From NCBI GenBank assembly GCA_947085205.1, contig CAMTVO010000017.1, positions 1-33,236 of the forward strand: 33,236 nucleotides of DNA. Direction: 5' to 3'. The DNA comes from an uncultured Nitrospiraceae bacterium (GTDB lineage: Bacteria; Nitrospirota; Thermodesulfovibrionia; Thermodesulfovibrionales; Dissulfurispiraceae). The notes under the pieces were generated by a model. The model had not been told where the DNA came from, did no database searches, and was given only the letters and a program-made list of their open reading frames with translations. The translations under genes and the position numbers were made by a program. The stretch's first letter is position 1. Each line of letters starts with the position of its first letter. Positions 1-33,119 of this stretch are shown here, piece by piece.

Positions 1-1618
1 CAAATATGCCTGCTGCAATAACCAATACCTTAATCCTGTGGTTGAGGGCAATTTTCAGAAGTCCTCTATATAGCTCCTCTGTTTTTTTATAAGCCTTTTC
101 AAAGGCATTAGAGAGCTTTGACTCTTGACTCCTGACTCCTGACTCCCGACTTTTTAAATATCTTGATGCCATCATCGGTGTAAGTGTAAAAGACACAAAC
201 AGTGATATAATTACTGCAAAGACAACAGTAATCGCGAACTGCAGGAAGAATTTTCCGATGATGCCTTTCATGAATGCCACCGGCAGAAATATGGCTACAA
301 TGGCCATTGTAGTTGCCATAACCGCAAGAGCTATCTCTGATGTTGCAAAGGAAGCGGCTTCGCGGGGAGACATGCCTTCTTCAATATGGCGATGGATATT
401 TTCAATGACTATAATGGCGTCATCAATAAGAATTCCGACCGAAAGGGACAGGGCGAGCATGGTCATGTTGTTGAATGTGAAATTAAAAAGCTTCATGATA
501 GCGAAGGTCGTGATGATAGACGTCGGGATCGCAAGCGCGCTTATCAAGGTTATCCTTGCGCTCTTTAAAAACAGGAGCACTGCAAGGGCAGCGAAGAAAC
601 CGCCGTAGATCAGGTGTTTCTGAACCTCGTTGATAGAGATCTTTATAAATGTCGACTGATCAAAGGAGATATCCAGATTCATTCCAGCAGGCAGGGTTTT
701 CCGTATCGCCTCTATTTCCTTTTTCACCCTTTCGATGACCTCGACGGTGTTCGTCCCCGACTGCTTCTGCACTCCCAAACCCACAGCAGGCAACCCATTG
801 AACCTTGCTATCGAGCGCTTTTCCTCCATGCCGTCTTCTGCCCTGCCCACGTCCGTGAGTCTGATGGGAGCGCCTTTCGAGTATCCCACGATGAGGTCGT
901 TGAAATCCTGTACCTTCAGGAACTCACCCTTGACCTTCACAGAGTACTCCTTGGTATCGCTCTCAATCCTTCCGCTCGGGAGTTCCACATTTTCACGCTG
1001 CAGCGCCCTCATGACATCATGGGCAGTGATCTGGTATGCCCGGAGCCTGTTCGTGTCGAGCCATACCCGCACCTGCCTCAGCCTGAGTCCGGCCAGTCGG
1101 ATTGCGCCAACTCCGTTCACCTTCTGGAGCTGTTCTTTCAGCACCTCATCAGCGTAAGTGGAAAGCTCCCTCGGTGATTTTTCTCCGGTAAGGGCAAGCC
1201 ACAAAACAGGAGTAGCATCCGGGTCAACCTTCTCTATTATCGGCTCATTGATATCCCTCGGCAGCTTCGATCTTATTGTAGAGATCTTTTCCCTCACGTC
1301 CTGAACTGCAAGGTCGATATCCCTTTCAAGCACGAACTCTACGAAGACGCTTGAGACTCCCTCCGTGCTTGTGGAGGCGATGGTCTTCACCCCGTTTATG
1401 GTATTGACCGCCTCTTCGATTTTATCTGTTACGTCAATATCCATAATCTCAGGGCTGGCGCCTCTGAGTGTTGTGGTAATGTTGACCATCGGAAAATCGA
1501 CTTTTGGAAAGAGATCAACACCGATGCCGGGATAGCTCACTATCCCGAATATAACGAGGGCAGCAATGACCATTGTTGCAAAGACAGGTCTTTTTATAGA
1601 CGTATCAGCGAGCCACAT
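1..1618 (-). CDS. RND efflux permease, AcrB/AcrD/AcrF family (5' part; runs off the window)
   Basis: Not in the ORF track; translated by hand from ATG at 1618: MWLADTSIKRPVFATMVIAALVIFGIVSYPGIGVDLFPKVDFP...; near the window edge it reads FAITVVFAVIISLFVSFTLTPMMASRYLK, typical of RND TM5-6. Overlaps the MFP stop. Confidence 0.95.
   Translation of the reverse strand, partial: MWLADTSIKRPVFATMVIAALVIFGIVSYPGIGVDLFPKVDFPMVNITTTLRGASPEIMDIDVTDKIEEAVNTINGVKTIASTSTEGVSSVFVEFVLERDIDLAVQDVREKISTIRSKLPRDINEPIIEKVDPDATPVLWLALTGEKSPRELSTYADEVLKEQLQKVNGVGAIRLAGLRLRQVRVWLDTNRLRAYQITAHDVMRALQRENVELPSGRIESDTKEYSVKVKGEFLKVQDFNDLIVGYSKGAPIRLTDVGRAEDGMEEKRSIARFNGLPAVGLGVQKQSGTNTVEVIERVKKEIEAIRKTLPAGMNLDISFDQSTFIKISINEVQKHLIYGGFFAALAVLLFLKSARITLISALAIPTSIITTFAIMKLFNFTFNNMTMLALSLSVGILIDDAIIVIENIHRHIEEGMSPREAASFATSEIALAVMATTMAIVAIFLPVAFMKGIIGKFFLQFAITVVFAVIISLFVSFTLTPMMASRYLKSRESGVRSQESKLSNAFEKAYKKTEELYRGLLKIALNHRIKVLVIAAGIF
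119..151. repeat. Heptamer tandem array (TGACTCC)x4-5, in frame in the RND permease
   Basis: TGACTCT TGACTCC TGACTCC TGACTCC CGACT; minus strand encodes SRESGVRSQES just after TM6. Confidence 0.9.
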
Positions 1619-2696
1619 TTACTCTCACCCCTTCGGAAAGATTTTGCTGCCCTGCTATGACAACATTTTCACCGCCTTTTAAGCCTTCCACAACCTCCAT
1701 CATCTCGCCGTATTTCTGTCCGACCTTCACAAACCTTTCCTTTGCCCTGCCGCCATCAACAACAAAGACCTTTACTGTCTCGCCTTCATATAGGAGAGAG
1801 ATTATCGGCACAAGAACCGTGTTTCTCTCAGCGCCTGTATAAAGTATCACATGGGCAAAAAGACCGGGTTTCAATAAGCTGTCAGGATTGGAAGCCAGTG
1901 CCTCTACCTGAAGAGTCCTCGTCTTTTCTTCGAGGCTTGGGTAAATGATGTTAACCTTTCCCTTAAATTCCATGCCCGGAAAGGCATCAACCTTAAAGGT
2001 TATATCCTGACCCTTCTTTAGCCTTCCCACATCCTTCTCTGTCACTGTGAAATTGAGTTTGAGCGGATTGTTCTGTATGATTACAAACATGTTGGCGCCG
2101 TTTCGCACATAATCACCCGCTGAGACCTTCTTTTCCTTTACATAGCCCGAAAGGGGAGAATAAATCCTCGTCTTGATGAGCTTCTGTTTTGCGAGGGACA
2201 ATGCTGCCTTTGCCCTTTCCACGTCAGACTCTGATAGGGAAAGCCTTGTAGATACGTCGTCGAACTGCTGTTGGGTCACAAGCTGCTCTTTATATAGGGC
2301 TTGCTTGCGTTCAAACTCAAGCTTTGTGTTTGAAAGAGTCGCATTAGCCTGTCTTAAGACAGCCTCTGCCCTTTTAACTTCAAGACCGTAATCGGTATCA
2401 TCAATTACCGATAACAGCATTCCCCTTGAGACTGCAGTTCCATTATCAACCTTTACTTCCTTTAAAATGCCATCAACCTCTGCGCTTACAATTTGGTCTT
2501 CATTTGGGTTTAAGGTGCCTATTGTCTCAACAAATGGCCTCTGCGCCTTCTCCTCAACAGATTGCACACGGACGTTCACAGACCTTTCTTCTGTCTTCTT
2601 TGTCTCCTTCTTCTTACAAGCCGGGGTCATGACGATTAAAACAATTGCGGTTAAAAGAATGATTTTAGCGAAGTTATTCCTGTCCGACTGCCACAT
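1605..2696 (-). CDS. RND efflux membrane fusion protein (periplasmic adaptor)
   Basis: Lipoprotein-like signal (MTPAC), hairpin coiled coil, IYSPLSGYV and LLKPGLFA motifs; lies between tolC-like and acrB-like genes. Confidence 0.95.
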   Translation of the reverse strand: MWQSDRNNFAKIILLTAIVLIVMTPACKKKETKKTEERSVNVRVQSVEEKAQRPFVETIGTLNPNEDQIVSAEVDGILKEVKVDNGTAVSRGMLLSVIDDTDYGLEVKRAEAVLRQANATLSNTKLEFERKQALYKEQLVTQQQFDDVSTRLSLSESDVERAKAALSLAKQKLIKTRIYSPLSGYVKEKKVSAGDYVRNGANMFVIIQNNPLKLNFTVTEKDVGRLKKGQDITFKVDAFPGMEFKGKVNIIYPSLEEKTRTLQVEALASNPDSLLKPGLFAHVILYTGAERNTVLVPIISLLYEGETVKVFVVDGGRAKERFVKVGQKYGEMMEVVEGLKGGENVVIAGQQNLSEGVRVNVAR

Positions 2697-4081
2697 CAGT
2701 TTGTCCTCCCTTTATCTTCCTTCTTTGACTTGGTGTCTTTGACTTGGTGTTCTATGGACTGCCGGCTGACAGTTGTCTTCAAAAATACGCCGGTCGTTCT
2801 CTGTAACCTCAGGATGGACAACTGATAACTATACCCTGCATCGGCAACCTGTCTTTCTGATGTCAGGAACAATGTATTTGCGTCAATGACATCTATGCTG
2901 TTGGCAAGGCCAAATTCATATTGCCTTGATACTGAATTATAGTTATCCTTTGCGAATGTCAACTGGTCTTCAAGGGATTTTAAGATTTCTTTCTGTGTCT
3001 GAAAATCAAGGCATGCATTTTCTACTTCGATGCCTACGGTTTTCTTAAGGTCTTCATATATAAATTCCGCCTGCCTCTGTCTTGACTCTGCCTCTCTCAC
3101 CTCAGCCTTTCTGAGTCCTCCCTCGAAGAATGGAAAATTTAACTTAATTCCACCGTAAATACTCTCCTTATTGAGAAAGGCAGATGCAGGGTCTTCCTCT
3201 CTCCTTGAGTAAACACCTTCTATAGATAGAGTTGGCCAGTATGAACCCTTTGCATATTTAACCTGCTCTTTTGCAACCCTCCTCTGCAACTCGATGGCCT
3301 TTAATTCAGCCCTTTCGGAAGAAGCTATCTGTTTCAGAGACTCAACTGTTTCCGTGCTTGCTGCATACTGTTTACTGTCTGCTGCTTCCTTAATATCAAA
3401 GTCTCCGCTTAGTCCGGCAACCCTTGCAAGCACCGCCTTTGTTAGCTTAAGATTATTTTCAGATTTCACCAGTTCCGCACGGGCGCCCGACAATTCAGCC
3501 TCTGCCCTCAGCAGGTCTGTTTTTGTGACCTCACCGACCTTGAGTCTTATTGCTGCTGCGTCCCTGTGTTTTGTCAGCCGATCAAAATTGCTCTTTGCAA
3601 TCTCGGCAGCCTTCTTTGCTCTAAGCACATCATAATAAGCAGACGCAACGCTGAAAATATAAGCCTCCTTCACTGCATGAAGGTCATATCTGCTCTTTTC
3701 AATGGCTTCCCTTGAGATTTTAAAGGCAGTAATTTCTCTGCCGCTTATTGATAGAGATTGATCAAGTCTTAAACCCCATGATGTAGAGTCATTCGGCTGG
3801 ATGACAGCGCCTGTTGATGAATGCTTGTCTTCACTGTATTTTGTGTAATTTCCGAATGCCGAAAGTTTAGGAAGCAGCGCTGAAACGGCCTTGTCCTTTC
3901 CTCTTTCTGCAATATAAAGGTCTTCTTCGGATATCCTTATCCTCTCAGCACGCTCAAGGGCAATCTGATAAAGGTCGCTGAGAGAATACTCCTGTGCTGA
4001 AAGAGTACCAGATGTAAAAATGACTATTACAACTGCCAAAACCATTAAAGATGGTATTTTTGATTTAATCATTGCAATCAC
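2696..4081 (-). CDS. TolC-family outer membrane efflux protein
   Basis: Signal peptide, two OEP-like repeats (ALLPKLS..., SYWPTLS...), GTG start with AGGAG 7 nt upstream. Confidence 0.93.
   Translation of the reverse strand: MIAMIKSKIPSLMVLAVVIVIFTSGTLSAQEYSLSDLYQIALERAERIRISEEDLYIAERGKDKAVSALLPKLSAFGNYTKYSEDKHSSTGAVIQPNDSTSWGLRLDQSLSISGREITAFKISREAIEKSRYDLHAVKEAYIFSVASAYYDVLRAKKAAEIAKSNFDRLTKHRDAAAIRLKVGEVTKTDLLRAEAELSGARAELVKSENNLKLTKAVLARVAGLSGDFDIKEAADSKQYAASTETVESLKQIASSERAELKAIELQRRVAKEQVKYAKGSYWPTLSIEGVYSRREEDPASAFLNKESIYGGIKLNFPFFEGGLRKAEVREAESRQRQAEFIYEDLKKTVGIEVENACLDFQTQKEILKSLEDQLTFAKDNYNSVSRQYEFGLANSIDVIDANTLFLTSERQVADAGYSYQLSILRLQRTTGVFLKTTVSRQSIEHQVKDTKSKKEDKGRTN
2722..2772. 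repeat. 14-bp tandem duplication plus degenerate heptamers in the TolC C-terminal tail
   Basis: TCTTTGACTTGGTG twice (2722-2735, 2736-2749), followed by GGACTGC CGGCTGA CAG. Confidence 0.6.
3355..3389. repeat. Heptamer array (TGCTTAC-like)x5, in frame in TolC
   Basis: TGCTTGC TGCATAC TGTTTAC TGTCTGC TGCTTCC; encodes EAADSKQYAAS between the two OEP repeats. Confidence 0.8.
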
Positions 4082-4093
4082 CCCTTTATCTCC

Positions 4094-4121
4094 TGTATTC
4101 TGCCTACTGTTTACCGCCTTT
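4094..4121. repeat. Heptamer array (TGYYTAC-like)x4 spanning the tetR stop codon
   Basis: TGTATTC TGCCTAC TGTTTAC CGCCTTT; minus strand reads GGC GGT AAA CAG TAG. Confidence 0.7.
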
Positions 4122-4715
4122 TATAGTTCCTCTCACAAAAATCTTCACAAATTCCCTTATCGTTATATTTTTATCCACATGCCTGTATTTTTTATGCATC
4201 ATCATTTCATGGACATTAAAATACGAAAAAAACATCCCTAAAAATGCCCTTGCACCGAACTCTGTATCAAAGCCTTTAAGAATCTTCCTTTTCTGCATCT
4301 CGCCAAAATAGGATGCAAGAATCTTAAATATCTCATCGATAAATGCATGGTAAATTTTATGGATCTTCTCAGGATACCTCTGCATCTCCGAATGCATTAT
4401 CTGTATCAGGTCTTTTCTTGACGAGAGTGTTTCTAAAAATCTTTTTGCGATTTCGGTTAATGCTTTTTCATATGACATCCGTGCTATTTCAGGCATCAGT
4501 TCTTTTAAGGCAGGCAGAAATGAATGGGTATTTATAACTTCTTCAAAGAGTTTTTCTTTTGAGGGGAAGTGCCTAAACAGCGTTACCTCTGCTATCCTCG
4601 CCTCTTTTGCAATCTCTTTTGTGGTGGCGCCGAGATAGCCTTTTTGGGAAAAGAGCTTCAGTGCCACTTCAAGAATTCTGTCCCTCGTGGATTGTGTGTC
4701 TTTTGAATCTCCCAT
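4104..4715 (-). CDS. TetR/AcrR family transcriptional regulator
   Basis: N-terminal HTH TRDRILEVALKLFSQKGYLGATTKEIAKEARIAEVTLFRHFPSKEKLF; first gene of the efflux operon. Confidence 0.96.
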   Translation of the reverse strand: MGDSKDTQSTRDRILEVALKLFSQKGYLGATTKEIAKEARIAEVTLFRHFPSKEKLFEEVINTHSFLPALKELMPEIARMSYEKALTEIAKRFLETLSSRKDLIQIMHSEMQRYPEKIHKIYHAFIDEIFKILASYFGEMQKRKILKGFDTEFGARAFLGMFFSYFNVHEMMMHKKYRHVDKNITIREFVKIFVRGTIKGGKQ

Positions 4716-4735
4716 TCAAACCTCTGCTTTATTTT

Positions 4736-4755
4736 ATGTAAGTGCTTACTTACAT
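4736..4755. promoter_or_regulatory. Putative TetR operator
   Basis: Perfect palindrome ATGTAAGT-GCTT-ACTTACAT covering the expected transcription start of tetR. Confidence 0.8.
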
Positions 4756-4782
4756 TATAAGGGGAATATATTCGCCTGTCAA
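4754..4782 (-). promoter_or_regulatory. Sigma70 promoter of the tetR-efflux operon
   Basis: Minus strand TTGACA (4782-4777), 17 nt, TATAAT (4759-4754): perfect consensus. Confidence 0.88.
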
Positions 4783-4790
4783 GAAAAAAT

Positions 4791-4820
4791 TTGACTTACG
4801 CAAAAGGCACGGTTTATATT
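4791..4820 (+). promoter_or_regulatory. Putative sigma70 promoter of tupABC
   Basis: TTGACT-18 nt-TATATT, then GAGG RBS and ATG at 4841. Confidence 0.5.
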
Positions 4821-4840
4821 GTAACAACAAGAGGCAATAC

Positions 4841-5695
4841 ATGCTCAAAAGAAGTTTTATATTAATACTGATTGTATCGGCTTGTCTCGCCTCGGCAGTC
4901 TCCGCCGAAACAAGAATACGCTGTGCATCAACTACAAGCACTCAGAATTCGGGATTGTTTGATTACATCCTGCCCATATTTCAGAAAAAGACGGGGATAA
5001 AGGTTGATGTGGTTGCAGTGGGGACTGGCGCTGCCATAGAGATAGGGAAAAGGGGAGATGCTGATGTGGTGTTTGTCCACGCAAAGGAGCAGGAGTTAAA
5101 GGCTGTGGAGGAGGGATATTTTGTTAATCGCCATGATGTTATGTACAATGATTTTGTCATCATTGGCCCTTCAGATGATCCTTTAAAGATAAAGGGCATG
5201 AAATCAGCATCAGAAGCATTCAAAAGGATAGGAGAACTCAACTATCCCTTTGTTTCAAGGGGCGATAAATCAGGCACACATACAAAAGAATTATCAATAT
5301 GGGAAAAAGCAGGAATCGATCCCAAAGGGGGTTCTCGTAAGGGGGACAAAGTCCCCCTTACGCATTCTCAAAAGTGGTATCTCGAAGTAGGTCAGGGGAT
5401 GGAAAAGACCCAGAGGATTGCCAATGAAAAGCGGGCATATACACTGACTGACAGAGGCACATGGCTTGCTACAAAGGATAAGGATAAGCTTGAGATGAAG
5501 ATTGTCCTTGAGGGCGACCCGATATTGTTCAATCAGTATGGAGTTATGGCTGTTAATCCTCAAAAGCATAAGCATGTCAAATACAGAGAGGCAATGGAGT
5601 TTATAAACTGGCTCATATCAAAGGAAGGACAGCGGGCTATTGCATCCTTTAAAGATAAACACGGAAATCAGTTGTTTATCCCGAATGCAAGATAA
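4841..5695 (+). CDS. tupA: Tungstate ABC transporter substrate-binding protein
   Basis: Signal peptide; STTSTQNSGL, FVSRGDKSGTH and YTLTDRGT motifs; start moved to ATG 4841 because of the RBS. Confidence 0.93.
   Translation: MLKRSFILILIVSACLASAVSAETRIRCASTTSTQNSGLFDYILPIFQKKTGIKVDVVAVGTGAAIEIGKRGDADVVFVHAKEQELKAVEEGYFVNRHDVMYNDFVIIGPSDDPLKIKGMKSASEAFKRIGELNYPFVSRGDKSGTHTKELSIWEKAGIDPKGGSRKGDKVPLTHSQKWYLEVGQGMEKTQRIANEKRAYTLTDRGTWLATKDKDKLEMKIVLEGDPILFNQYGVMAVNPQKHKHVKYREAMEFINWLISKEGQRAIASFKDKHGNQLFIPNAR
5336..5362. repeat. Perfect 12-bp-stem palindrome inserted in frame in tupA
   Basis: CGTAAGGGGGAC-AAA-GTCCCCCTTACG, flanked by TTCTC direct repeats (5332-5336, 5365-5369). Confidence 0.88.
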
Positions 5696-5767
5696 GTTCG
5701 GTGAAGGGACTTAGAGGAATTCTTACATTGATTCTCAAAAGATTTAATATCTGTAACTAAACCTGGT

Positions 5768-7146: not shown

Positions 7147-7180
7147 GTTGCACTTTCACGCTGTTTTTTAGTATCTTATT

Positions 7181-7351
7181 CAATAGCACGACAGAGCGAC
7201 ATTAGTGCGATAGTTAATAGAGCGACAGTGCGACAGTTTTTATAAGGAATAAATTTTTCCATAATTTGACTGTCGCACTGCCGAACTGTCGCACTAAAAA
7301 ACTAATTTGACTGTCGAACTGTCGTTCTGTAGCTCTATGTCGCTCTATGTT
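7181..7351. repeat. Inverted pair of octamer arrays (CGACAGWG)n / (CTGTCGCW)n abutting tRNA-Leu
   Basis: Left arm 7181-7238, AT-rich spacer, right arm 7270-7351; internal 14-bp direct repeat TAATTTGACTGTCG (7262, 7303). Confidence 0.88.
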
Positions 7352-7438
7352 GCCGGAGTGGCGGAATTGGTAGACGCAAGGGACTTAAAATCCCTCGGAG
7401 CTTGCTCTGTACGAGTTCGAGTCTCGTCTCCGGCACCA
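7352..7438 (+). tRNA. tRNA-Leu (anticodon TAA)
   Basis: Acceptor GCCGGAG/CTCCGGC plus ACCA, anticodon arm AGGGA-CTTAAAA-TCCCT, long variable arm, GTTCGAG T-loop. Confidence 0.97.
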
Positions 7439-7462
7439 AATAAAACTGGAGTAATGGAGTAC

Positions 7463-8338: not shown

Positions 8339-8709
8339 AAAATGTTTTACAGGGTTTATTCTTTTATGCAGTAGAAAACTGCAGTGAGCCTCTGATAGAC
8401 TGTTACGAGACTGCCGATGACCTCGTATTTGAAATTGACCTGCCTGGAATAAACCCGGCAGATGCATCAATAAATGTGTATGAGGATTTACTGATCATAG
8501 AAGGAATGAAAACCGATGACGAATCAATATCAGGCGACTTAAAATACTTATGCATGGAGAGAAGCACAAAGGATTTCAGGCGTGTAATAAAAATGCCTAT
8601 CCATATCAATACCATAGCCGGCGAGGCATTTTATGCCAATGGAGTTATAACAATTAAGTTCCCAAAACTAAAGGGCAAATTGATAAAAATTAATATAGAG
8701 AGGAGATAA
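8335..8709 (+). CDS. Hsp20/alpha-crystallin small heat shock protein
   Basis: PLIDCYET...IDLPGI, CMERS...FRRVI and [12 protein letters not shown]; immediately upstream of lon. Confidence 0.88.
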
Positions 8710-8710
8710 G

Positions 8711-11164: not shown

Positions 11165-12194
11165 CTCTAAAGACAGCAGCATCATTGTGGGTATCGGCGA
11201 TGATGCTGCTGTTATTGCCCCTCAAAAAGAAAAAATCCTTGTCACAACGGATATGATGAACGAGGGGATTCATTTTGATTTAAGCCTTACATCCCCTTTA
11301 CAACTCGGCTTTAAACTTGTGTCTGTCAATGTAAGCGATATTATGGCAATGGGCGGGAAGCCGAAGTATCTATTCCTGAGTATAGCCATGAAAAAGGATA
11401 CAGACGAAGAGATTTTCTGGAAGATGTATGAAGGGATTTCCAATGCAATGAACATCTATGAAGTGAATTTAGTGGGCGGGGATTTGTGTGCTGCAGAAAA
11501 TGACATGGTTCTTTCTGCTACAATAATTGGTGCGGGCGATAAGATTATCGCAAGGAGCGGGGCATCTGTCGGAGATAAGATTTATGTTACAGGTACTGTT
11601 GGCGATTCCGCGTGCGGATTGGAGATATTGAAGAAGCTTGCTCCTGAATCAAAAGATAGAGTTAAGAGTTATGAGTTTAGAGTTAGAAGCAAAAAACAAA
11701 AAAATAAGGACGAAAAGGCATTGTCTTTAACTCATAACTCCAAACTCCTAACTCTTGACTACGAGATTGCCGAGCCTTTGATCAGAAGGCATCTTATGCC
11801 TGTCGCAAGAGACTCCAGTGAGATTGCGAAACACGCGACATCAATGATAGATATAAGTGATGGTTTATTTATCGACCTTTGCAGGGTATGCGATGAAAGC
11901 AATGTGGGTGCAAAGGTTTATCTCGATAAAATACCTGTATCAAAGGAATTGAAGCAAGCTGCTGATATAATGGGCTTAGACCATATACACCTCGCAACAT
12001 CTGGCGGCGAGGATTATGAGCTTTTGTTTACAGCACATCCACACCCCCCCATCCTTCCCTTGTTAAGGGGGGGCGCAGGGGGGGTAAGAATAACCTGCAT
12101 TGGCGAAATCACAGAAAAGGATAGGATTGTTGTGGATAAAAGGGGCAGGGAATTCCCTATCAAAGCAGAGGGATACCAGCATTTTGGAATTTGA
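11106..12194 (+). CDS. thiL: Thiamine-monophosphate kinase, with two in-frame repeat insertions
   Basis: [37 protein letters not shown] and terminal GYQHF. Confidence 0.96.
11657..11760. repeat. Inverted pair of heptamer arrays (NNGAGTT)4 / (AACTCNN)4, in frame in thiL
   Basis: TAGAGTT AAGAGTT ATGAGTT TAGAGTT, 44-nt A-rich spacer, AACTCAT AACTCCA AACTCCT AACTCTT. Confidence 0.92.
12043..12085. repeat. C/G-tract palindrome, in frame in thiL
   Basis: ACCCCCCC-AT-CCTTCCCTT-GTT-AAGGGGGGG-CGCA-GGGGGGGT; encodes [14 protein letters not shown]. Confidence 0.88.
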
Positions 12195-12221: not shown

Positions 12222-12653
12222 TTGGCTCTTCGAGATAAGTTATCTGCGATTTTCAGCGTAAAAGATTCTCCAAAAAAGATTGCAATATCCTTTGCAGTGG
12301 GCATCTTTATCGGCATGTCTCCAATACTCGGGCTGCATACTGTGCTTGGCATTGCCGCTGCATGGATGCTCAGGCTCAATAAATTTGTGACCATAGTCGG
12401 GGTATATATCACCAATCCATGGACTATCGTGCCGATATATACGTTTGCAACATGGTCCGGCGCAAAACTGCTGGGCATGAAGAAAATAATACCGTCCATC
12501 GACTGGAACAATATAAGCTTTAACTATCTATTGAATGAGATGAGCCATCTTTTATTACCCTTTGTCTTTGGAACAACGCTTCTCGGCCTTCTGTCGGCAG
12601 TAGCAGGCTATATCATAATCTATCGGGCAGTAATGAGAAGCAGGCAGGAGTGA
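12222..12653 (+). CDS. DUF2062-family membrane protein
   Basis: DSPKKIAISFAVGIFIGMSP and ITNPWTIVPIY motifs; TTG start. Confidence 0.85.
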   Translation: MALRDKLSAIFSVKDSPKKIAISFAVGIFIGMSPILGLHTVLGIAAAWMLRLNKFVTIVGVYITNPWTIVPIYTFATWSGAKLLGMKKIIPSIDWNNISFNYLLNEMSHLLLPFVFGTTLLGLLSAVAGYIIIYRAVMRSRQE

Positions 12654-12731
12654 AATAAAAGGTTGCATTATGCTGCAAAATGAATTGTAATTATAGCAAA
12701 GCATAACAAATATGAAGAGGAGGCAATATAT

Positions 12732-12923
12732 ATGGCAACAGCAGTTAGGGTATCTGAAGAATTGCTTAACGAGGCACGGGGCATATTTGTCCATAAATTC
12801 AAAATCAAAACGATTGAATATCTTCTTGCTTATCGAATTATTGGAAAGGATTTAGAATTAATTATGATTGGTCCTCATGAAAACTATTATCGTGACTTGA
12901 AAAGTTACCTAAAGAGCAAATAA
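12732..12923 (+). pseudogene. In-frame fusion remnant: ParD-like antitoxin N-terminus plus RelE/ParE-like toxin C-terminus
   Basis: MATAVRVSEELLNEAR (RHH-like start) joined to GIFVHKFKIKTIEYLLAY...IMIGPHENYYRDLK (ParE-like end); strong AGGAGG RBS. Confidence 0.72.
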
Positions 12924-12972
12924 AAGTGATAGGGCAAGAGGGTCATGTCTTGTTTCTTGCATAAATCGCTCT

Positions 12973-13485: not shown

Positions 13486-14850
13486 TTGACTACAATTAAC
13501 ATCACAACCCTCGGCTGTCCAAAAAATGTTGTTGATTCAAGACATTTGGCAAGAAGATTTGTATCAGAAGGCTTTGTCCATGTGGATGATGCAAATGATG
13601 CGGATATCCTTCTTGTAAACACATGCGGCTTTATACGGGATGCAAAGGAAGAGTCCATAGAAGAGATACTAGGACTTGCCAAGATGAAAGGTAAAAGGGC
13701 GAAGCTTATTGTATTCGGATGCCTGGCACAAAGATACAGGGATGAACTCCTGAAAGAGATTCCTGAAATAGACGCTATCTTTGGAGTTGGAGAAGATAGC
13801 AACATAATTGAATACTGCAAGGATTTGGCTATAGGCTATAGGCGCGAGGCGATAGGGAATACCAAAATGCCTATTGCCCATTGCCAATCGCCTATCGCCT
13901 CGTCCTATGCCTATCTCAAAATCGCAGAGGGCTGTGATAAAAAATGCACATTCTGCGTTATACCATCCATAAGGGGAAGATTCAGGAGCATTCCACCGGA
14001 ACAAATATTGAAAGAGGCAGAGGAATATATACAGAAAGGCATCAGAGAGTTAATACTCGTGGCGCAGGATATTACTAACTATGGAAAAGAATTAAAGGGA
14101 TATCCCCTTGTATCTTTACTAAAGGATCTGGCATCCATAGATGGTGATTTCCGAATCCGCCTCCTTTATCTTTATCCAACAGAAATAAGTGATGAATTGC
14201 TGGAGTGCATAGCCGGTGAGGACAAAATACAGAAATACCTCGATATACCTCTTCAGCACTCTGAGGATAAGATATTGAGGCTAATGGGAAGAAGAGGAAC
14301 GAGAAAAGAATATATCAAACTGATAAGAAACATCAGGCGCACCATTCCGGGAGTTGCGCTCAGGACAACATTCATCGTTGGATTTCCCGGCGAGACAGAA
14401 GAAGATTTTCATGGACTTGTGGACTTTATAGAAGAAGTACGATTCGACAGGCTTGGGGTCTTCAAATATTCAAAGGAAGAAGGAACGTCAGCATCAAAAC
14501 TCAAAGGGCATGTGCCTGAGAAAGTAAAAAACAGAAGGCTCGATAAGATAATGACAAGACAGGCAGCCATCTCACTTGAGAAAAATAAGGAACTTGTCGG
14601 CAAAAGATACGAGGCGATAATAGACGAATCTGACGATAATGTTGCCATTGCACGGCTTTATTCCCATGCGCCTGAAATAGATGGAGTAATAATTATTGAT
14701 GATTTCAGATTGAAGATTGAAGATTTAAAAACAAAAAAATCCGAAATCATAAATCATAAATCTGCAATCCCAAAGGTTGGTGACATCGTGAAGGTTGAGA
14801 TTGTGGATGCCCTCGATTACGATGTAAAAGGCGTCCTTGCAAACACATAA
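13486..14850 (+). CDS. rimO: Ribosomal protein S12 methylthiotransferase, with two in-frame repeat insertions
   Basis: TLGCPKNVVDS, NTCGFI, YAYLKIAEGCDKKCTFC and TRAM-domain APEIDG. Confidence 0.96.
   Translation: MTTINITTLGCPKNVVDSRHLARRFVSEGFVHVDDANDADILLVNTCGFIRDAKEESIEEILGLAKMKGKRAKLIVFGCLAQRYRDELLKEIPEIDAIFGVGEDSNIIEYCKDLAIGYRREAIGNTKMPIAHCQSPIASSYAYLKIAEGCDKKCTFCVIPSIRGRFRSIPPEQILKEAEEYIQKGIRELILVAQDITNYGKELKGYPLVSLLKDLASIDGDFRIRLLYLYPTEISDELLECIAGEDKIQKYLDIPLQHSEDKILRLMGRRGTRKEYIKLIRNIRRTIPGVALRTTFIVGFPGETEEDFHGLVDFIEEVRFDRLGVFKYSKEEGTSASKLKGHVPEKVKNRRLDKIMTRQAAISLEKNKELVGKRYEAIIDESDDNVAIARLYSHAPEIDGVIIIDDFRLKIEDLKTKKSEIINHKSAIPKVGDIVKVEIVDALDYDVKGVLANT
13827..13899. repeat. Inverted pair of heptamer arrays (GGCKATA)5 / (TATYGCC)5 in the RimO interdomain linker
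   Basis: GGCTATA GGCTATA GGCGCGA GGCGATA GGGAATA, CCA, AAATGCC TATTGCC CATTGCC AATCGCC TATCGCC. Confidence 0.92.
14701..14769. repeat. Inverted pair of heptamer arrays (GATTKAA)4 / (NNAAATC)5 in the RimO TRAM domain
   Basis: GATTTCA GATTGAA GATTGAA GATTTAA, 6 nt, AAAAATC CGAAATC ATAAATC ATAAATC TGCAATC. Confidence 0.9.
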
Positions 14851-20211: not shown

Positions 20212-20979
20212 ATGACAGGGCACAGTATTTACGCTCATTCTCGAAAGGCATCCAAGCCTTTCTCCGAGGCTACGCCAGCCCGCTTAGACATCCATGTCAC
20301 GCTTGGGCTGCCGAAGCCGCTTCAATACAATGCCCTGCCTGACAAATTATTCATATTAGAAATCCTTATTATTTGTCTATTCTCTGTCTTATGTCTTTCG
20401 TCTTCTATTACTTTTGCTTCGCAAGCTGATGATGAAGTTCTAAAAATCCAGAAGGCATACGAGAACATAAAAGACATTAAGGGGAGTTTTGTTCAGAAAA
20501 GCTACATAAAAGACCTGAAAAAAACCGATACTTATAAAGGGCAGTTTTTCATAAAGTCTCCAAAAATGAGATGGGAATACAAGGGAGACAAACCCCAGAT
20601 TGTGTATATCACTGGAGAGGACATGATAATTTATCAGAAAAAAGAAAAGCAGGCGTTTAAGGCAAGATTCGACAGGGCAACCTATGGACAGGCTCCGATA
20701 GCCCTTTTGGGCGGGTTTGGAGATATTAAAAAGGAGTTCGACGTTTCGACAAAAGCAGAACACAGACTTTTATTGAAACCTAAAAAACCGATGGGGAATA
20801 TCTCTCATATTGAGCTTTCGTTGTCAGACAACGAATTCCCAATAGAATCCCTTACAATTACCGACACCCTATCCAACAAGATTGAGATTAATATTAAGGA
20901 TGTTAAAACCAACACTGATTTGAAAGATAAGCTATTTGAATTTTCACCGCCTGAAGGGGTGAATGTTTTACAACAATAA
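20212..20979 (+). CDS. lolA: Outer-membrane lipoprotein carrier LolA, with an element-derived N-terminal extension
   Basis: GSFVQ, PKMRWEY and terminal FEFSPPEGV; follows ftsK; ATG 20212 has AGGA 5 nt upstream. Confidence 0.88.
   Translation: MTGHSIYAHSRKASKPFSEATPARLDIHVTLGLPKPLQYNALPDKLFILEILIICLFSVLCLSSSITFASQADDEVLKIQKAYENIKDIKGSFVQKSYIKDLKKTDTYKGQFFIKSPKMRWEYKGDKPQIVYITGEDMIIYQKKEKQAFKARFDRATYGQAPIALLGGFGDIKKEFDVSTKAEHRLLLKPKKPMGNISHIELSLSDNEFPIESLTITDTLSNKIEINIKDVKTNTDLKDKLFEFSPPEGVNVLQQ
20216..20337. mobile_element. 122-bp MITE-like element inside the 5' end of lolA
   Basis: 14-bp imperfect TIRs CAGGGCACAGTATT / AATACAATGCCCTG; internal hairpins GAAAGGC-ATCCAA-GCCTTTC and CAGCCC...GACAT-CC-ATGTC...GGGCTG; GC-richer than its flanks. 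Confidence 0.75.
20382..20409. repeat. Degenerate heptamer array in the LolA signal peptide
   Basis: CTCTGTC TTATGTC TTTCGTC TTCTATT; encodes SVLCLSSSI. Confidence 0.55.
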
Positions 20980-21022: not shown

Positions 21023-21232
21023 ATGCAGTCAACAGCCAAAGTAAGAAAACAGTTTCTCCTCGACCCCGAGAAAATCGAGACCGTTAAAAAAATTACCCGC
21101 GCGGCAACCGATACCGAGGCGATTAACAGAGCCCTTGACATGGTAATTGCGAATGAAAAAATCCAGAAAGCGCTTACGTCAGTAAAAGGCAAGGGCAAGA
21201 TAGAGGATGCCTTTGGCAGAGTATCCGCTTAA
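21023..21232 (+). CDS. Putative VapB-type antitoxin
   Basis: 69 aa with RHH-like RKQFLLD...TDTEAINRAL; overlaps the PIN gene. Confidence 0.8.
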   Translation: MQSTAKVRKQFLLDPEKIETVKKITRAATDTEAINRALDMVIANEKIQKALTSVKGKGKIEDAFGRVSA

Positions 21233-21644
21233 AGCCATCTGCGACACCTCGGTATATATTCCTTTCATCAATCATGGGATTATACATCCGGCTTTCTCCG
21301 ACGAATCCGTCAGGCCGGTGTTGTACATGAGCGCAGTTGTTCTTTCAGAACTCTATGCCGGAGCGCATGACAATCAAACCATTAAGCTTCTCGACAAGCT
21401 TCACCAAACGTTTCTCAATGTCGGCAGGCTCATTGTGCCTGATAGCGTGGACTGGCGGAAAGCAGGCGGTATAATTGCCGGGCTACAAAGAAAATACGGC
21501 TTTGAATCAAAATATCTCGCAAAACTACAAAATGATATCCTTATTGCTTGTTCCGCACGAAAGATCGGAGCATTCGTAGCATCGCACAACAAAAAAGATT
21601 TTCTGAGGATAAAGGAATTTATTGATTTCAGGATTTATGAATAA
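21207..21644 (+). CDS. PIN-domain VapC toxin
   Basis: ICDTSVYI, SAVVLSEL, NDILIA and HNKKDF acidic PIN motifs. Confidence 0.9.
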   Translation: MPLAEYPLKAICDTSVYIPFINHGIIHPAFSDESVRPVLYMSAVVLSELYAGAHDNQTIKLLDKLHQTFLNVGRLIVPDSVDWRKAGGIIAGLQRKYGFESKYLAKLQNDILIACSARKIGAFVASHNKKDFLRIKEFIDFRIYE

Positions 21645-21657
21645 CGAGGACAAGAAG

Positions 21658-22608
21658 ATGAGCACAATCAAAAAAATCGCCATCACCATAGGAGACCCGG
21701 CAGGCATAGGGCCTGAGGTAGCTCTAAAGGCAATCTCCGCAAAAGAGATTGCCGGGATATGCAAGCCCGTGATTGTAGGAGATAGAGCCGTCATTGAAGA
21801 AACTATCGACAAACTTGGCATTCCTCTCAGCATAAATGACCTTGAATTAATAGACGCAGGTGCGATCAAGGACAGAAATTTTCAAAAATGCATGCCTACC
21901 GCTGAAGGCGGAAAGGCTTGCATGGCGTATATAAAAAAGGTTGTCGAGCTTGCGTTGAATAAAAGCGTTGATGCCATTGTAACCGCACCGATTTCAAAAG
22001 AAGCATTGAAAATGGCCGGTTTTAAATGGCCGGGTCATACCGAGTTGCTGGCTGAATTAACAAATATAAAAGATTTTGCCATGATGTTTTACAGCGATAA
22101 ATTGAAGGTCATCCTCGTTACTATCCATACTGCGTTAAGTAATGTTCCGGATTTAATAAAAAAGGGAAAGGTACTGAAAACTATTCTGCTTGCAAAAAAG
22201 GCATGCGATATGCTGGGCATAGAAAATCCCCGCATCGCGGTCTCAGGGCTTAATCCCCATGCAGGAGAATCCGGCATCTTCGGAAATGAGGAGATAAAAG
22301 AGATTACTCCGGCAATCGAAGAAGCGCAAAATATGGGGATTTCAGTATCAGGCCCCTCCCCTGCCGACACTTTATTTTACAGGGCATATAACGGAGAATT
22401 TGATATAATAGTCTGCATGTATCACGATCAAGGCTTGACGCCGTTTAAAATGATAGCCTTTGAAAAAGGCGTGAACATGACTGTCGGTCTGCCGATTGTC
22501 AGGACTTCTCCGGATCACGGCACAGCCTATGACATAGCGTGGAAAGGCATCGCAAACCCGTCGAGCATGATTGAGGCGATAAAACTGGCAGTAAGGGTGA
22601 AAACATGA
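21658..22608 (+). CDS. pdxA: 4-hydroxythreonine-4-phosphate dehydrogenase
   Basis: ITIGDPAGIGPE, GLNPHAGE, MYHDQG and RTSPDHGTAYDIA; GAGGA RBS before ATG 21658. Confidence 0.95.
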   Translation: MSTIKKIAITIGDPAGIGPEVALKAISAKEIAGICKPVIVGDRAVIEETIDKLGIPLSINDLELIDAGAIKDRNFQKCMPTAEGGKACMAYIKKVVELALNKSVDAIVTAPISKEALKMAGFKWPGHTELLAELTNIKDFAMMFYSDKLKVILVTIHTALSNVPDLIKKGKVLKTILLAKKACDMLGIENPRIAVSGLNPHAGESGIFGNEEIKEITPAIEEAQNMGISVSGPSPADTLFYRAYNGEFDIIVCMYHDQGLTPFKMIAFEKGVNMTVGLPIVRTSPDHGTAYDIAWKGIANPSSMIEAIKLAVRVKT

Positions 22609-22862
22609 ATAACGACATCCTCACAAAAATCGCCTCCCTCAAATCCGTCCTTGACGGCTATCGTCCTTTCTCCGACCATGTTGTCAAGCAGTTAAAAGAT
22701 TATTACCGCATCGGGCTGACTTATACATCCAATGCGATTGAATGGAACACGCTTACGGAGTCGGAGACAAAAGTTATCATTGAAGACGGTATAACCATAG
22801 GTGGTAAGTCTTTAAGAGAACACCTTGAGGCTATAGTACGCCATGATAGGGCGATTTTATAA
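22605..22862 (+). pseudogene. Truncated Fic-family gene (N-terminal part only)
   Basis: TYTSNAIE(W)NTLTESET...GITIGGKSLREHLEA matches Fic N-termini (normally SNAIEGN); stops before the HPFxDGNGR motif. Confidence 0.82.
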
Positions 22863-23995: not shown

Positions 23996-24041
23996 AACGG
24001 TCTATTGCCTATAATCTACAACCTGTTTTATTATATTAGCC

Positions 24042-25253: not shown

Positions 25254-25261
25254 TTCTTATT

Positions 25262-26380: not shown

Positions 26381-26411
26381 AATAACCCCTTAATAAGTAA
26401 CTCTCGACACA

Positions 26412-26462
26412 AATCATAAGAAAAGCACATTAAATACAGGGAATATGTGCCAATTTATGATT
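26412..26462. promoter_or_regulatory. Nested inverted repeat in the leader of the nitronate monooxygenase-family gene
   Basis: AATCATAA...GCACAT-14 nt-ATGTGC...TTATGATT. Confidence 0.5.
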
Positions 26463-26622
26463 AACGCTTCACTTTGAAGGTTGCCATTATAATCGCTCAA
26501 AACCGTGTATTTTATCAAGGGAAATATCACCGATACGGTATTTGCCGTTCTTGAAGTGCAAACAACCGAGTTTTAGTGATGCCCGACTTCTGCATGGCCT
26601 CCGGCAATTATGTAAACATCCT

Positions 26623-26657
26623 TCAACTGTTCACTATTCACTAATCACTGTTCACTG
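26623..26657. repeat. Heptamer array (TTCACTR)x5 just after the argJ stop
   Basis: TCAACTG TTCACTA TTCACTA ATCACTG TTCACTG. Confidence 0.85.
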
Positions 26658-26660
26658 TTT

Positions 26661-27854: not shown

Positions 27855-27856
27855 GT

Positions 27857-28897
27857 TTACGGAAACAATGCCAGTGACTCAAGGGCCGTAGTCTCTTTAA
27901 AGCCCATCATGATATTCATATTCTGCACAGCCTGTCCTGATGCGCCTTTGGCAAGGTTGTCGATTGCAGAAACTATAATCAATGTATTTGTACGCTTATT
28001 AACCTTAAGCCCAATATCGCAATAGTTGCTGCCGCGAATATTTTTTGCATTGGGGAAAACCTCTTCATCAAGAACATTCACAAAAGTCTCTGCATCGTAA
28101 AACTTTTTATAAACGGAGAGCATATCCGCAGTATCAATCTTTTTAAGCATCTTCCCATACATGGTCGAAATTATTCCTCTGTCCATAGGAACGAGATGAG
28201 GAGTAAAGTTTATGGTTATCTTCTTTCCTGCAATGCCTGATAATTCCTGCTCTATCTCAGGCGTATGGCGGTGAACACCGATTCCATAAGCCTTAAACCC
28301 TTCATTCACCTCGCAGTATGAAAATCCAATATCTGCCTTTCTGCCTGCGCCTGATGTGCCTGACTTTGAATCTATGATGATATTTTCAATATCAATTATT
28401 CCCTCTTTAATTGCAGGATACAAGCCCAAAATTGCGCTTGTAGGATAACAGCCTGGATTAGCAATAAGTCTTGCATTCTTAATCTCCTCGCGATGAAGTT
28501 CCGGGAGGCCGTAAACAGCTTTGTTCAATGTATCTTTATAATTATGCGGTGTCTTATACCATTCTTCATAAACAGCGGCGTCCGATATGCGGTAATCGGC
28601 AGAAAGGTCTATTACCTTTTTGCCATTCTTAAAGAAATAATCCACTGCCTCCTGAGATGCGGCATGCGGTAATGCCATAAAGAAAAGGTCTGCCTTCTGG
28701 AGTATTTTCTCTTTATCCAAAAGCTCATAGACTAAATGTGCATACTTGTGAAGATGAGGGAAAAGGTCTGTAACCTTCTTGCCTGCCGACTTCTCTGATG
28801 TGACCGCAGTTATCTCGACTTCAGGATGTCCTGAAAGGATACGCAGAAGCTCTGCACCTGTATAACCGCTTCCTCCGCAAATCGCTGCTTTTATCAT
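27857..28897 (-). CDS. argC: N-acetyl-gamma-glutamyl-phosphate reductase
   Basis: GGSGYTGAEL, IANPGCYPT, HRHTPEI and IDNLAKGASGQA. Confidence 0.97.
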   Translation of the reverse strand: MIKAAICGGSGYTGAELLRILSGHPEVEITAVTSEKSAGKKVTDLFPHLHKYAHLVYELLDKEKILQKADLFFMALPHAASQEAVDYFFKNGKKVIDLSADYRISDAAVYEEWYKTPHNYKDTLNKAVYGLPELHREEIKNARLIANPGCYPTSAILGLYPAIKEGIIDIENIIIDSKSGTSGAGRKADIGFSYCEVNEGFKAYGIGVHRHTPEIEQELSGIAGKKITINFTPHLVPMDRGIISTMYGKMLKKIDTADMLSVYKKFYDAETFVNVLDEEVFPNAKNIRGSNYCDIGLKVNKRTNTLIIVSAIDNLAKGASGQAVQNMNIMMGFKETTALESLALFP

Positions 28898-28935
28898 AGT
28901 TCCATACCTTTCGAAATTTATACAATTATACTGCT

Positions 28936-29099
28936 TATTATAGCAGGTATGTATGCGATAAAAGGCTTTATCTCGCCACCATTGTAAGACTTTTGGATAC
29001 TGACAAACAACCGCTTTTTAATGCAACATGAAAAGCATTTCTGTTTAAACCAAATTGCGAATTATAAAGACTTTTGCCGCATACATACCTGCTATAATA
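28936..29099. mobile_element. 164-bp MITE with 36-bp terminal inverted repeats
   Basis: TATTATAGCAGGTATGTATGCGATAAAAGGCTTTAT (28936-28971) matches the reverse complement of 29064-29099 at 33 of 36 positions; TA-rich ends; no ORF. Confidence 0.88.
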
Positions 29100-29131
29100 C
29101 ACGCTTGTCTCTTTTTGCCACCCTAAATACA

Positions 29132-29160
29132 AAGCCCGTTCAAGGAACGGGCTTATTTTA
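29132..29160. terminator. Intrinsic terminator after rpsI (possibly bidirectional)
   Basis: AAGCCCGTTC-AAG-GAACGGGCTT hairpin with T-rich tails on both strands. Confidence 0.8.
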
Positions 29161-29186
29161 TCACAACCATTAGTAAACCGTATCTG

Positions 29187-29579
29187 TTATCTCTTGGAGA
29201 ACTGGAACCTTGCCCTTGCGCCCTTCTGTCCGAATTTCTTTCTCTCCACTTCCCTCGGGTCTCTTGTGAGAAGCCCTTCTTTTTTAAGCTTTGACTTCAG
29301 GTCAGCGTCAACCGTAACCAAAGCCCTTGCAATACCATGCCTCAATGCGCCTGCCTGACCGCTCAATCCGCCGCCGTCGACATTTGCTACCACGTCATAC
29401 CTGCCAAGCACGCCTGTAACATGGAGAGGCTGCTTGATAATCATCCTAAGGGTTTCACGGGGGAAGTAATTCTCAAACTCCCTGTCATTTACGGTAATCT
29501 TGCCTTTGCCTGGAACCAAGGTAACCCTTGCTATTGATCTCTTTCTTCTGCCTGTTGAATTATACTGTATCAAAGCCAT
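29187..29579 (-). CDS. rpsI: 30S ribosomal protein S9
   Basis: [22 protein letters not shown] and QFSKR. Confidence 0.98.
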
Positions 29580-29588
29580 TTCTACTCC

Positions 29589-30026
29589 TTATTTTGTAAG
29601 TTCTATCGACTCTGGTTTTTGTGCAGCGTGACCATGCTCGGCTCCGCGATACACTTTTAATTTCTTAATCATCTGCCTGCCAAGCCTATTCTTTGGAAGC
29701 ATTCCCCAGACTGCATCCATTATTACCTTTTCGGGCTCCTCGTCCATCCTGTCCTTAAGCGCCTTTTCCTTTATGCTTCCGATGTAGCCTGAATGGTGGT
29801 AATACATCTTATCAGTGAGCTTTTTTCCTGTAACCTTAACCTTCTCTGCGTTGACAACAATCACAAAATCTCCTGTATCCACATTTGGGGTAAATATAGG
29901 CTTATGCTTTCCGCGGAGGTACGATGCAATCCTGCACGCCATCCTTCCGAGCACCTTATCCTTTGCATCAACAACATACCATTTACGATCAATGTCTTCT
30001 TTTTTTGCAAACTTCGTCGTCTTCAT
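29589..30026 (-). CDS. rplM: 50S ribosomal protein L13
   Basis: [23 protein letters not shown] and [10 protein letters not shown]. Confidence 0.98.
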
Positions 30027-30073
30027 CTATACACCTTCCCAATGTTTTAAATATCGAATAGATTAAGTTAAAT

Positions 30074-30126
30074 AAGATAATAGAAATCACATGGATTTGT
30101 CAATATTCTCTCCTGCCTGATATAAT
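30074..30126. promoter_or_regulatory. Overlapping divergent promoters for rplM and thiD
   Basis: Minus strand: TTGACA (30103-30098), 18 nt, TATCTT. Plus strand: TTGTCA (30097), 18 nt, TATAAT with TGn extension (30118-30126), and ATG 7 nt later. Confidence 0.65.
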
Positions 30127-30133
30127 AATCTTC

Positions 30134-30890
30134 ATGAAAACAGCCCTTACCATAGCAGGCTCAGACCCAACAGGAGGGGCTGGGCTGCAGGCAGATATCA
30201 GGGTTTTCAACCGGTTCGGTGTTTACGGGCTTTCGGCAGTCTCTGCACTTACGGCCCAGAACACATATGAGGTCAATACAATTTTAAAGGTAGACGGAAA
30301 ATTTCTTGAAGAACAGCTTAATACACTGATTAGCGATATACGGCCTGATGCAATCAAAACAGGGATGCTTTTTTCAAAAGATGCTGTAAAAGCAGTAGCA
30401 AAAATTATTAAAGGGTACGAACTTGAGAATCTCGTTATCGACCCTGTTACAATATCATCCACAGGCACGAGTCTCATGGAAGAAGGCGGTCTCGATTTTC
30501 TGAGGGGAGAGATGTTTCCGCTTGCAAAGGTGATAATGCCCAATATTTATGAGGCATCCGTAATTTCCGGCGTAAATATCATCGATGAGAAGGATATGGA
30601 AAAAGCTGCGATTGTACTAAAAAAACTCGGGCCGGAAACAGTGATAATAACAGGCGGACATTTTGAACAAGAGACGCTGGACTTAATATATGATGGAAAA
30701 AGTTTCCATCGCATCAGAGGTAAAAAGATAAAAGGCGAATACCACGGGACAGGATGCGCCTTTTCTGCGGCTATTACTGCCTGTCTTGCCAAAGGCATAT
30801 CTGTCTTAGATGCTGCCAAAAAGGCAAAGGAATTTATGAATGATGCAATAACGAATGCTCACAGTATCGGCAAGGGCATGAGGTTATTGA

Positions 30891-30898
<8 letters not shown>
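30134..30898 (+). CDS. thiD: Hydroxymethylpyrimidine/phosphomethylpyrimidine kinase
   Basis: TIAGSDPTGGAGLQAD, IKTGML and HGTGC. Confidence 0.96.
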
Positions 30899-32985
<2,087 letters not shown>

Positions 32986-32989
32986 CAAA

Positions 32990-33119
32990 TAAATAGTTAA
33001 ATTAAACAAATAGTTTAATAGGAAGTAAAAAAGGAAAATTTCCTTAATTCTTAATTATATCAAAAACTGTCGCTCTGTAGCACTGTAACTCTGTCGCTCT
33101 GCCGCTCTGTCGCGCTATT
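32990..33119 (-). repeat. Second, inverted copy of the octamer element, directly after the cas1 stop
   Basis: CTGTCGCT CTGTAGCA CTGTAACT CTGTCGCT CTGCCGCT CTGTCGCG (33067-33114); its ends and spacer motif match 7182-7260. Confidence 0.85.

Follow-up and report, generated by a model that had tools for sequence, protein, structure and literature searches.

Arrays of seven- and eight-base repeats in a Nitrospiraceae genome, their rewriting at orthologous sites and their relation to four-helix-bundle cassettes

The genome of an uncultured Nitrospiraceae bacterium (Dissulfurispiraceae; assembly GCA_947085205.1) carries 378 short tandem arrays whose repeat unit, here called a word, is seven or eight bases long, and the main result of this study is that the orthologous sites holding these arrays are reused and rewritten with other words in related genomes. 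The arrays are real, genome-wide and outside any described family, and their design is that of a hairpin element plus a helper gene, the latter being a small four-helix-bundle gene that lies between two inverted arrays, or arms, in what is here called a cassette. The window, meaning the whole stretch of DNA that was analysed, is the entire contig C17 (CAMTVO010000017.1; 33,236 nt) of a 1.885-Mb assembly of 65 contigs that is 89.7% complete. The closest named relatives of its RimO protein belong to Nitrospirae and Thermodesulfovibrionales genomes. Gene names were assigned from Pfam and NCBIfam, and the placement of arrays inside or between genes follows the analysis's own gene caller. The main comparison was with the relative G008, a complete genome of which 1.64 of 2.37 Mb was compared, plus two short stretches. 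Contigs from four DNA sequencing runs were also compared and gave one informative empty allele, from a single contig.

Sites were anchored between this genome and G008 in 145 of 315 cases. At the coding sites, G008 also holds an array in 34 of 92 (28 with another word, 6 with the same word), compared with 10 of 478 control positions, and at the non-coding sites it does so in 11 of 53, compared with 21 of 378 controls. Among 534 variable internal segments from 789 orthologous proteins, 30 are array-bearing in both genomes, compared with an expectation of about 10 (odds ratio 7.5; the count of 30 includes shared ancestral arrays), and reuse exceeds what a plain tolerance filter on variable segments would give. 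Length is kept within 3 nt at 12 of the 28 different-word sites, and some such sites hold arrays in opposite orientation. When 30 different-word sites were examined, the word found in each genome tended to be commoner in that genome (21 vs 5 and 16 vs 4 of the 30). Length differences at coding sites peak at 30-36 nt (16/92) and at 59-70 nt (9/92), corresponding to one arm or two; single arms of about 30-36 bases are gained and lost as a quantum.

The gene for RimO provides the clearest examples. The element in its linker (position 13827) is nearly unchanged in the closest relative (L325) and is replaced by other words in other genera. In the loop of the TRAM domain, three different whole elements lie between the same codons (87 nt here, 99 in L325 and 87 in L329), eight more genomes have further words by eye, and the loop is short in distant kin. 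Similarly, the leader of a tRNA-Leu gene contains an 8-mer element here and, between the same flanks, a 7-mer element in G008 whose word fits a G008 cassette, while one contig of sequencing run X6 has 17 plain letters instead. Word replacement is also seen at thiL, at acrB and at the signal peptide that follows radA, where G008 nests one element in another. The earlier note on this DNA had proposed aligning orthologues of such genes, and for rimO, thiL, acrB and radA the alignments reveal the same sites with other words, other elements or short loops among relatives. The proposed definition of filled and empty sites was achieved in part, as array-bearing and array-free alleles were recovered and neither a cassette-filled window site nor a target duplication was seen.

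The abundance of the arrays has been compared with that in shuffled sequence. At a score of 11, the window contains 11 arrays of period 7 or 8, whereas 30 codon-block shuffles give a mean of 0.1 and a maximum of 1; at a score of 8 the numbers are 14 and 1.4. The whole genome contains 255 period-7 and 54 period-8 arrays compared with 2 and 0 in one shuffle, and every other period gives 0-15 arrays; removal of overlaps leaves the total of 378. The excess of these two periods over codon-shuffled controls is thus as the earlier note anticipated. Arrays have a median size of about 30 nt and are mostly made up of 4-5 units. The polarity that had been noticed in the window also extends to the genome, as neighbours less than 110 nt apart show a G-rich arm followed by a C-rich arm 50 times, the reverse order 2 times and two arms of the same type 11 times; among close pairs of opposite type, the purine-rich arm therefore leads in 50 of 52. 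In G008 the corresponding numbers are 8 purine-first and 1 reversed. A strong complement is present downstream of 120 of 374 arrays, compared with 11 having one upstream and 30 when partners are swapped, so that inverted pairing is well above controls; the majority of arrays are nevertheless unpaired.

The words themselves are both diverse and related. There are 113 distinct 7-mer words in the genome, as expected from the diversity reported earlier, but the sequences are not free, since they form word families with the loose consensus A-G-T-N-A-R-N. Of 307 7-mer arrays, 244 have an exact word in common with another array, compared with about 101 after the letters are shuffled within words. The two arms of one element may carry two words, as in the pair at 32258 and 32305, in which 6 of 7 positions pair, one of them as G-T. 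Most elements have unique spacers between their arms; however, 8 dispersed elements, including the one at 7181-7350, share one unique spacer, indicating that whole units are copied. The shared words, the matched arms and the copies with a common unique spacer bear out the view that simple slippage is insufficient. Slippage does act on existing arrays as well: the radA arms of G018 are exactly three units (21 bases) longer than those here, and arms within genes are shortened by slippage in such steps of three units.

Of the 378 arrays, 238 lie inside genes, 44 extend over a gene end and 96 fall between genes. The idea that arrays colonize genes in frame agrees with this, although the share inside genes is below the 91% of the genome that is coding. 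Words that contain a stop codon when read on the coding strand are under-represented inside genes, as expected from selection, and purine arms translate to basic or polar residues and pyrimidine arms to hydrophobic ones. Since 84 of the 96 intergenic arrays lie between co-directional genes, 34 arrays overlap stop codons and several elements form strong hairpins, the arrays might be RNA signals, i.e. processing, terminator or stability elements that the host selects and keeps or renews. A precedent is the stem of the Coxiella intervening sequence (IVS), which has heptamer repeats and is cut by RNase III (PMC4990558, seen in part). This explanation is quite unlikely, as the transcribed strand is not preferred (G-T vs A-C pairs, 247 vs 282; the sense strand folds better in 60 of 121 cases), most arrays are single arms, the majority lie inside genes and kin have empty sites. 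At best, RNA signals would account for the retention of arrays and not for their origin.

The genes found between arms have also been examined. Two genes of the genome match PF05635 above cut-off (contigs C65 and C23); each also matches TIGR02436, is flanked by period-7/8 arms and is sited between protein-coding genes. A third, weak PF05635 match has no arms; this is a longer four-helix-bundle gene (G000 C14:122175-122750) that is followed by what is presumably a type I restriction subunit gene. The nearest solved relative of the four-helix-bundle protein is 2GSC (E 9.8e-15), and the family is present in 24 of 41 genomes searched. Arms flank both sides at 15 of 24 scored four-helix-bundle loci and at least one side at 23 of 24, with the purine arm first (scan periods 6-10), compared with both-sided arrays at 2.3% of 1852 genes of this genome (scan periods 7-8). 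By eye, arms can be seen at six further loci. In relatives (L046, L058, L047) there are cassettes whose arms have a period of 9 or 6, indicating that the period is not strictly 7 or 8. A left end of the form AAAG(A/G)C-AG is frequent at cassettes by eye. The guess that small four-helix-bundle or IVS-type genes would be the cargo between the arms is therefore borne out here and in relatives, as is the absence of such a gene from the window, where no element contains a PF05635 gene. GxxExxY (PF13366) was considered as an alternative cargo; the genome, at 89.7% completeness, gave no match to it. A purine arm precedes and a pyrimidine arm follows 14 genes, and by eye the one cassette-like case among them is the four-helix-bundle gene; the others are ordinary genes between separate elements.

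Comparison of orthologous sites reveals filled, gene-less and empty states, which is the presence/absence polymorphism that the earlier note had looked for. Two sites on other contigs are cassette-filled in relatives and hold gene-less arms here, one of them with the same word, and the hisA-hisF junction has a cassette in two relatives and is cleanly empty here. The suggestion that array sites are empty footprints of cassettes is supported at these other sites; the window sites behave less like single footprints and more like spots that are repeatedly rewritten with other words. Each protein lineage retains its own word across hosts: in between-host protein pairs the word is common to both in 8 of 11 pairs with at least 50% identity compared with 3 of 496 below this value (fragmentary cassettes L052 and L053 were excluded, and some automatically called words are imperfect). 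Where one host has several cassettes, each has a different word. Furthermore, in G008 the free arrays are enriched for the words of resident cassettes, with 65 of 165 within one mismatch of a G008 cassette word compared with 40 of 377 arrays of this genome. The G008 cassette at 1.737 Mb was taken from locus L057, and its word family is that of the 1.520-Mb cassette. Sampling of DNA from relatives detected arrays in 12 of the 23 that have the gene and in 2 of the 16 that lack it; these are small samples of non-independent kin in which PF05635 counts were set by hand, weak matches (E above about 1e-8; G028, G029) were set to zero, G011 was unsampled and G016 was sampled for 3.5 kb only.

The pairing of arms around a variable spacer resembles that of REPINs (PMC3337134, seen in part), and Y1_Tnp genes are present in 5 of 5 array-bearing genomes tested. 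The hairpins might be moved in trans by an HUH tyrosine transposase (RAYT/IS200 type) encoded elsewhere, with the four-helix-bundle gene as a passenger. This is unlikely, since Y1_Tnp also matches in 6 of 14 control genomes, the single Y1_Tnp gene of this genome has no adjacent heptamer arms, single arms have no leading- or lagging-strand bias (64 of 129 in 1.6 Mb of G008) and the words track the four-helix-bundle protein.

We lean modestly towards the explanation that the arrays are gene-less offspring of four-helix-bundle cassettes that are spread and overwritten by cassette-templated copy-and-replace. First, horizontal transfer would bring in a cassette, which would seed its word. Next, the cassette would serve as a template for single arms or mini-elements at new places, and these would preferentially enter old arms, possibly aided by the common A-G-T core of the words. 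Selection would then retain copies that are in frame within loops, tails or signal peptides, along with copies just after stop codons. Finally, words may survive their cassette and decay. The four-helix-bundle protein has no known catalytic domain, and its putative role would be to bind its own word and recruit a host enzyme. The dispersal of whole arm-spacer-arm units, their nesting and their exchange between the same flanks are observed and are consistent with this sequence of events.

The strongest rival is a passive process in which cassettes only deliver words, host slippage lengthens single word-like seeds to 4-5 units, ordinary ectopic gene conversion among similar arrays spreads and swaps the words and the protein is uninvolved. 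This is a possibility of the second rank that deserves to be taken seriously: the 21-nt changes of the radA arms reveal slippage, a single word-like stretch is present at several array-free orthologous sites, the cassette encodes no enzyme and the arrays here mismatch the resident cassettes. A passive process leaves the preference for period 7 or 8, the narrow length range and the fixed polarity unexplained, together with the insertion of whole units in array-free sites, the nesting and opposite orientation at one site and the scarcity of arrays in relatives that lack the gene.

Several results weigh against copying from cassettes. No window site is filled in relatives (30 rimO, 24 radA and 24 thiL loci and two syntenic stretches). 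The two cassette words of this genome match 14 of its own 377 arrays and 6 of 165 in G008; since the two resident cassettes fail to explain the arrays, the model has to suppose further cassettes that were lost or are missing from the assembly, which is 89.7% complete. The second commonest word family of G008 (AAGACAG/AAGTCAG) fits none of its examined cassettes. The co-occurrence of arrays with a gene family that the earlier note envisaged is partial, as 11 of the 23 gene-bearing relatives have no array in the 20-40 kb sampled. The covariation of word and protein, from which the protein's putative role is drawn, is evidence of co-inheritance and not of recognition. A fixed terminal motif was not found at free arrays, where k-mer counts give A-rich and word-derived signals only. 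Additionally, no target duplication was seen between these genomes, which are too distant for exact ends; because they belong to different genera, exact element ends and the order of events are not fixed. Tests for a reverse transcriptase and for a cognate Y1 transposase were negative, and no generating enzyme was found. The dedicated generating or mobilizing mechanism proposed earlier thus stands insofar as slippage is insufficient, and falls short in that enzyme and target duplication were not found and slippage acts too.

Short repeats of fixed length are reminiscent of reiterative synthesis, and arrays could in principle be written from RNA by a reverse transcriptase together with an Avd-like four-helix-bundle protein, as in diversity-generating retroelements. 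PF05635 resembles Avd (PMC10053308, seen in part). However, RVT_1 has no match in 4 of 5 array-bearing genomes, including this one (89.7-98% complete), and variation within the arrays is not adenine-specific (A 0.075, C 0.090, G 0.056, T 0.063), making this explanation very improbable. As a separate observation, in the region of locus L035 and its neighbours in G008 (C1:1489650-1520634) a four-helix-bundle cassette, together with a broken copy, adjoins CRISPR-like repeats; a frame of 894 residues that contains a reverse transcriptase lies some 16-30 kb away.

A bolder form of copying from cassettes is that a new DNA-writing system has the four-helix-bundle (IVS/S23p) pentamer as its specificity factor. 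In this speculative proposal, which we hold only tentatively, the protein would recognize a lineage-specific word and, with a host enzyme, would write stretches of about 33 bases, either alone or in inverted pairs, into the chromosome as well as over the arrays of earlier lineages. If true, this would explain both the long-noted heptamer excess of bacteria and how rRNA intervening sequences have spread, and new protein loops and signal peptides would have a continuing source. The heptamer-repeat excess and the role of the S23p/IVS family would merge into one testable system with cognate and non-cognate pairs of word and protein. The loops of RimO, ThiL, RadA and AcrB and the signal peptides that are rewritten in sister genera represent fast, directed coding turnover in essential genes, and the rewritten loops offer natural target sites for an assay.

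Of the 14 window sites listed in the earlier note, nine are clear and the one at 31211 is recognized via a relative; the site at 2722 consists of a 14-mer in two copies, and those at 3355, 4094 and 20382 are weak. Beginning at the left end, a single purine-rich arm (119..151, minus strand; word GGAGTCA on the gene strand) is inserted in frame in a loop of an AcrB-family gene, and other words occupy this loop in relatives G014 and G002. In a TolC-family gene on the minus strand, a 14-mer present twice in the C-terminal tail (2722..2750; no hairpin) is likely a decayed arm, and a weak decayed periodic stretch in a loop (3355..3385) is detected by loose scoring only; G008 has the same length there without an array. 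The purine-rich stretch at the tetR stop codon (4094..4115, minus strand) is not confirmed as an array, being unmarked even under loose scoring. On the plus strand, the 8-mer element at 7181..7350 lies directly before the tRNA-Leu(TAA) gene at 7352, with arms CGACAGAG and CTGTCGCA, a unique A/T spacer and a strong hairpin (z -6.0).

The next elements are also on the plus strand. In thiL, an in-frame arm-spacer-arm element (11658..11754; AGAGTTA / TAACTCC, arms starting at 11658 and 11728; hairpin z -3.9) recurs in G014, has other words in G008 and G002 and is replaced by a short loop in distant kin. The rimO linker element (13827..13900; GGCTATA / GCCTATC, arms at 13827 and 13868) is in frame before the radical-SAM domain, and the TRAM-domain element (14695..14762; GATTGAA / AAATCAT, arms at 14695 and 14737) is in frame with no significant hairpin. 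A weak pyrimidine-rich arm that encodes a hydrophobic stretch near the lolA start (20382..20405) is seen under loose scoring only; G008 carries an 8-mer pyrimidine arm at this site. Directly after the argJ stop codon, on the minus strand, is a single purine-rich arm (26626..26659; CAGTGAA / TAGTGAA) whose word also borders the four-helix-bundle genes of G036 and G021 and of which G008 keeps about one unit.

The remaining elements, at the right end, are on the plus strand. The contracted element in radA (31211..31250) is in frame and too short to score alone; the G018 element has the same spacer. The element across the radA stop codon (32258..32337; arms at 32258 and 32305; hairpin z -5.0) encodes, when read in frame with the next gene, which overlaps radA, a basic and a hydrophobic part before a cysteine, likely a lipoprotein signal peptide. 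Five relatives have other words at this place, G008 has nested elements and distant kin have a short leader. The putative lipoprotein gene begins within the last radA codons (32224-32258), so that most of its leader comes from the repeat element, and in several relatives the gene continues directly into rsmA-like sequence. The same gene contains an in-frame single pyrimidine-rich arm (32861..32897), which has a related word in G008 and is absent in several kin. After its stop codon is a compound element (32985..33113) with an 8-mer pyrimidine arm at its end (33067-33113); this element is also present in G008 and is absent in L149.

Other elements were noticed nearby. A second repeat family, composed of C-run/G-run palindromes, is in frame in thiL (12045-12085) and tupA (5314-5368). 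Neither G008 nor contigs from runs X2 and X5 have the tupA copy, and a similar palindrome is found at the radA loop in G002, indicating that different element families strike the same loops. A third palindrome family, of the GTCATTCCC..GGGAATC type, lies in or beside gene-less heptamer arms (G000 C38:17343-17466 and C24:18560-18769). A small insertion at 12652-12972, which carries part of a ParE-like toxin gene, is absent in a contig of run X6, and a VapB-like and PIN-domain pair at 21023-21644 is unaligned in G008. The truncated gene at 22605-22862 corresponds to a full 248-residue protein in G018, which we take from its motif to be Fic-like. The stretch 26400-26660 lacks the small, presumably cupin-like gene that follows argJ in G008 and G018.

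Rickettsia palindromic elements and other in-frame MITEs (miniature inverted-repeat transposable elements) are insertions in the surface loops of housekeeping proteins and have a fixed long consensus. The arrays described here resemble MITEs in the dispersal of a whole unit in the 8-copy subfamily with a shared spacer, and differ from the Rickettsia elements in that their periodic arms have many words; no target duplication was seen between these distant genomes. They also differ from diversity-generating retroelements, having neither an RVT_1 match here nor adenine-specific variation. The short tandemly repeated repetitive sequences (STRR) of cyanobacteria are further heptamer simple-sequence repeats. 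This class (STRR/LSSR), which is descriptive and without a mechanism, shares with the present arrays an over-represented period of 7, few copies and placement filtered by stop codons; here, however, the many 7-mer words are linked with cassette lineages and replace one another at fixed sites. Heptamer repeats have been described as GGGAATC in Xanthomonas, where convergent inverted pairs occur, and GGGGAYT in Nostoc (PMC4692102), and as TAACTGA in Beggiatoaceae (PMC4679880); the parts of these accounts at hand give one word per genome and no mechanism, and the main text of PMC4679880 does not mention four-helix, IVS or S23. No description of the present system was found in the main texts of the literature, with thin coverage of subscription journals; the supplements of PMC4679880 and PMC4692102 list repeat-adjacent genes.

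In the REPIN-RAYT system, non-autonomous inverted pairs with a variable spacer form several families per genome, each with a small repeat-flanked gene (PMC3337134, in part). The present elements likewise have two inverted arms around a variable spacer, with about a third of arrays strongly partnered, but their arms consist of tandem 7/8-mers instead of REP palindromes, the linked gene encodes a protein other than a tyrosine transposase, and most copies lie in frame within genes and not outside them. The closest parallel is the 23S IVS of Coxiella burnetii, in which an S23p open reading frame lies within a terminal inverted stem, preceded by tandem GACAGAT heptamers whose copy number varies among strains (PMC4990558, in part). 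Both systems share the protein family TIGR02436, an inverted terminal stem and heptamers, and GACAGAT itself is the word of 6 free arrays here. The cassettes described here lie between protein-coding or tRNA genes and not in a 23S rRNA gene, and the window elements, in or beside protein genes and one tRNA gene, carry no PF05635/TIGR02436 gene. In contrast to Coxiella, hundreds of gene-less arms are spread along the chromosome and in genes, with many words that coexist and replace each other. By analogy, the Coxiella 23S intervening sequence looks like one such cassette residing in an rRNA gene.

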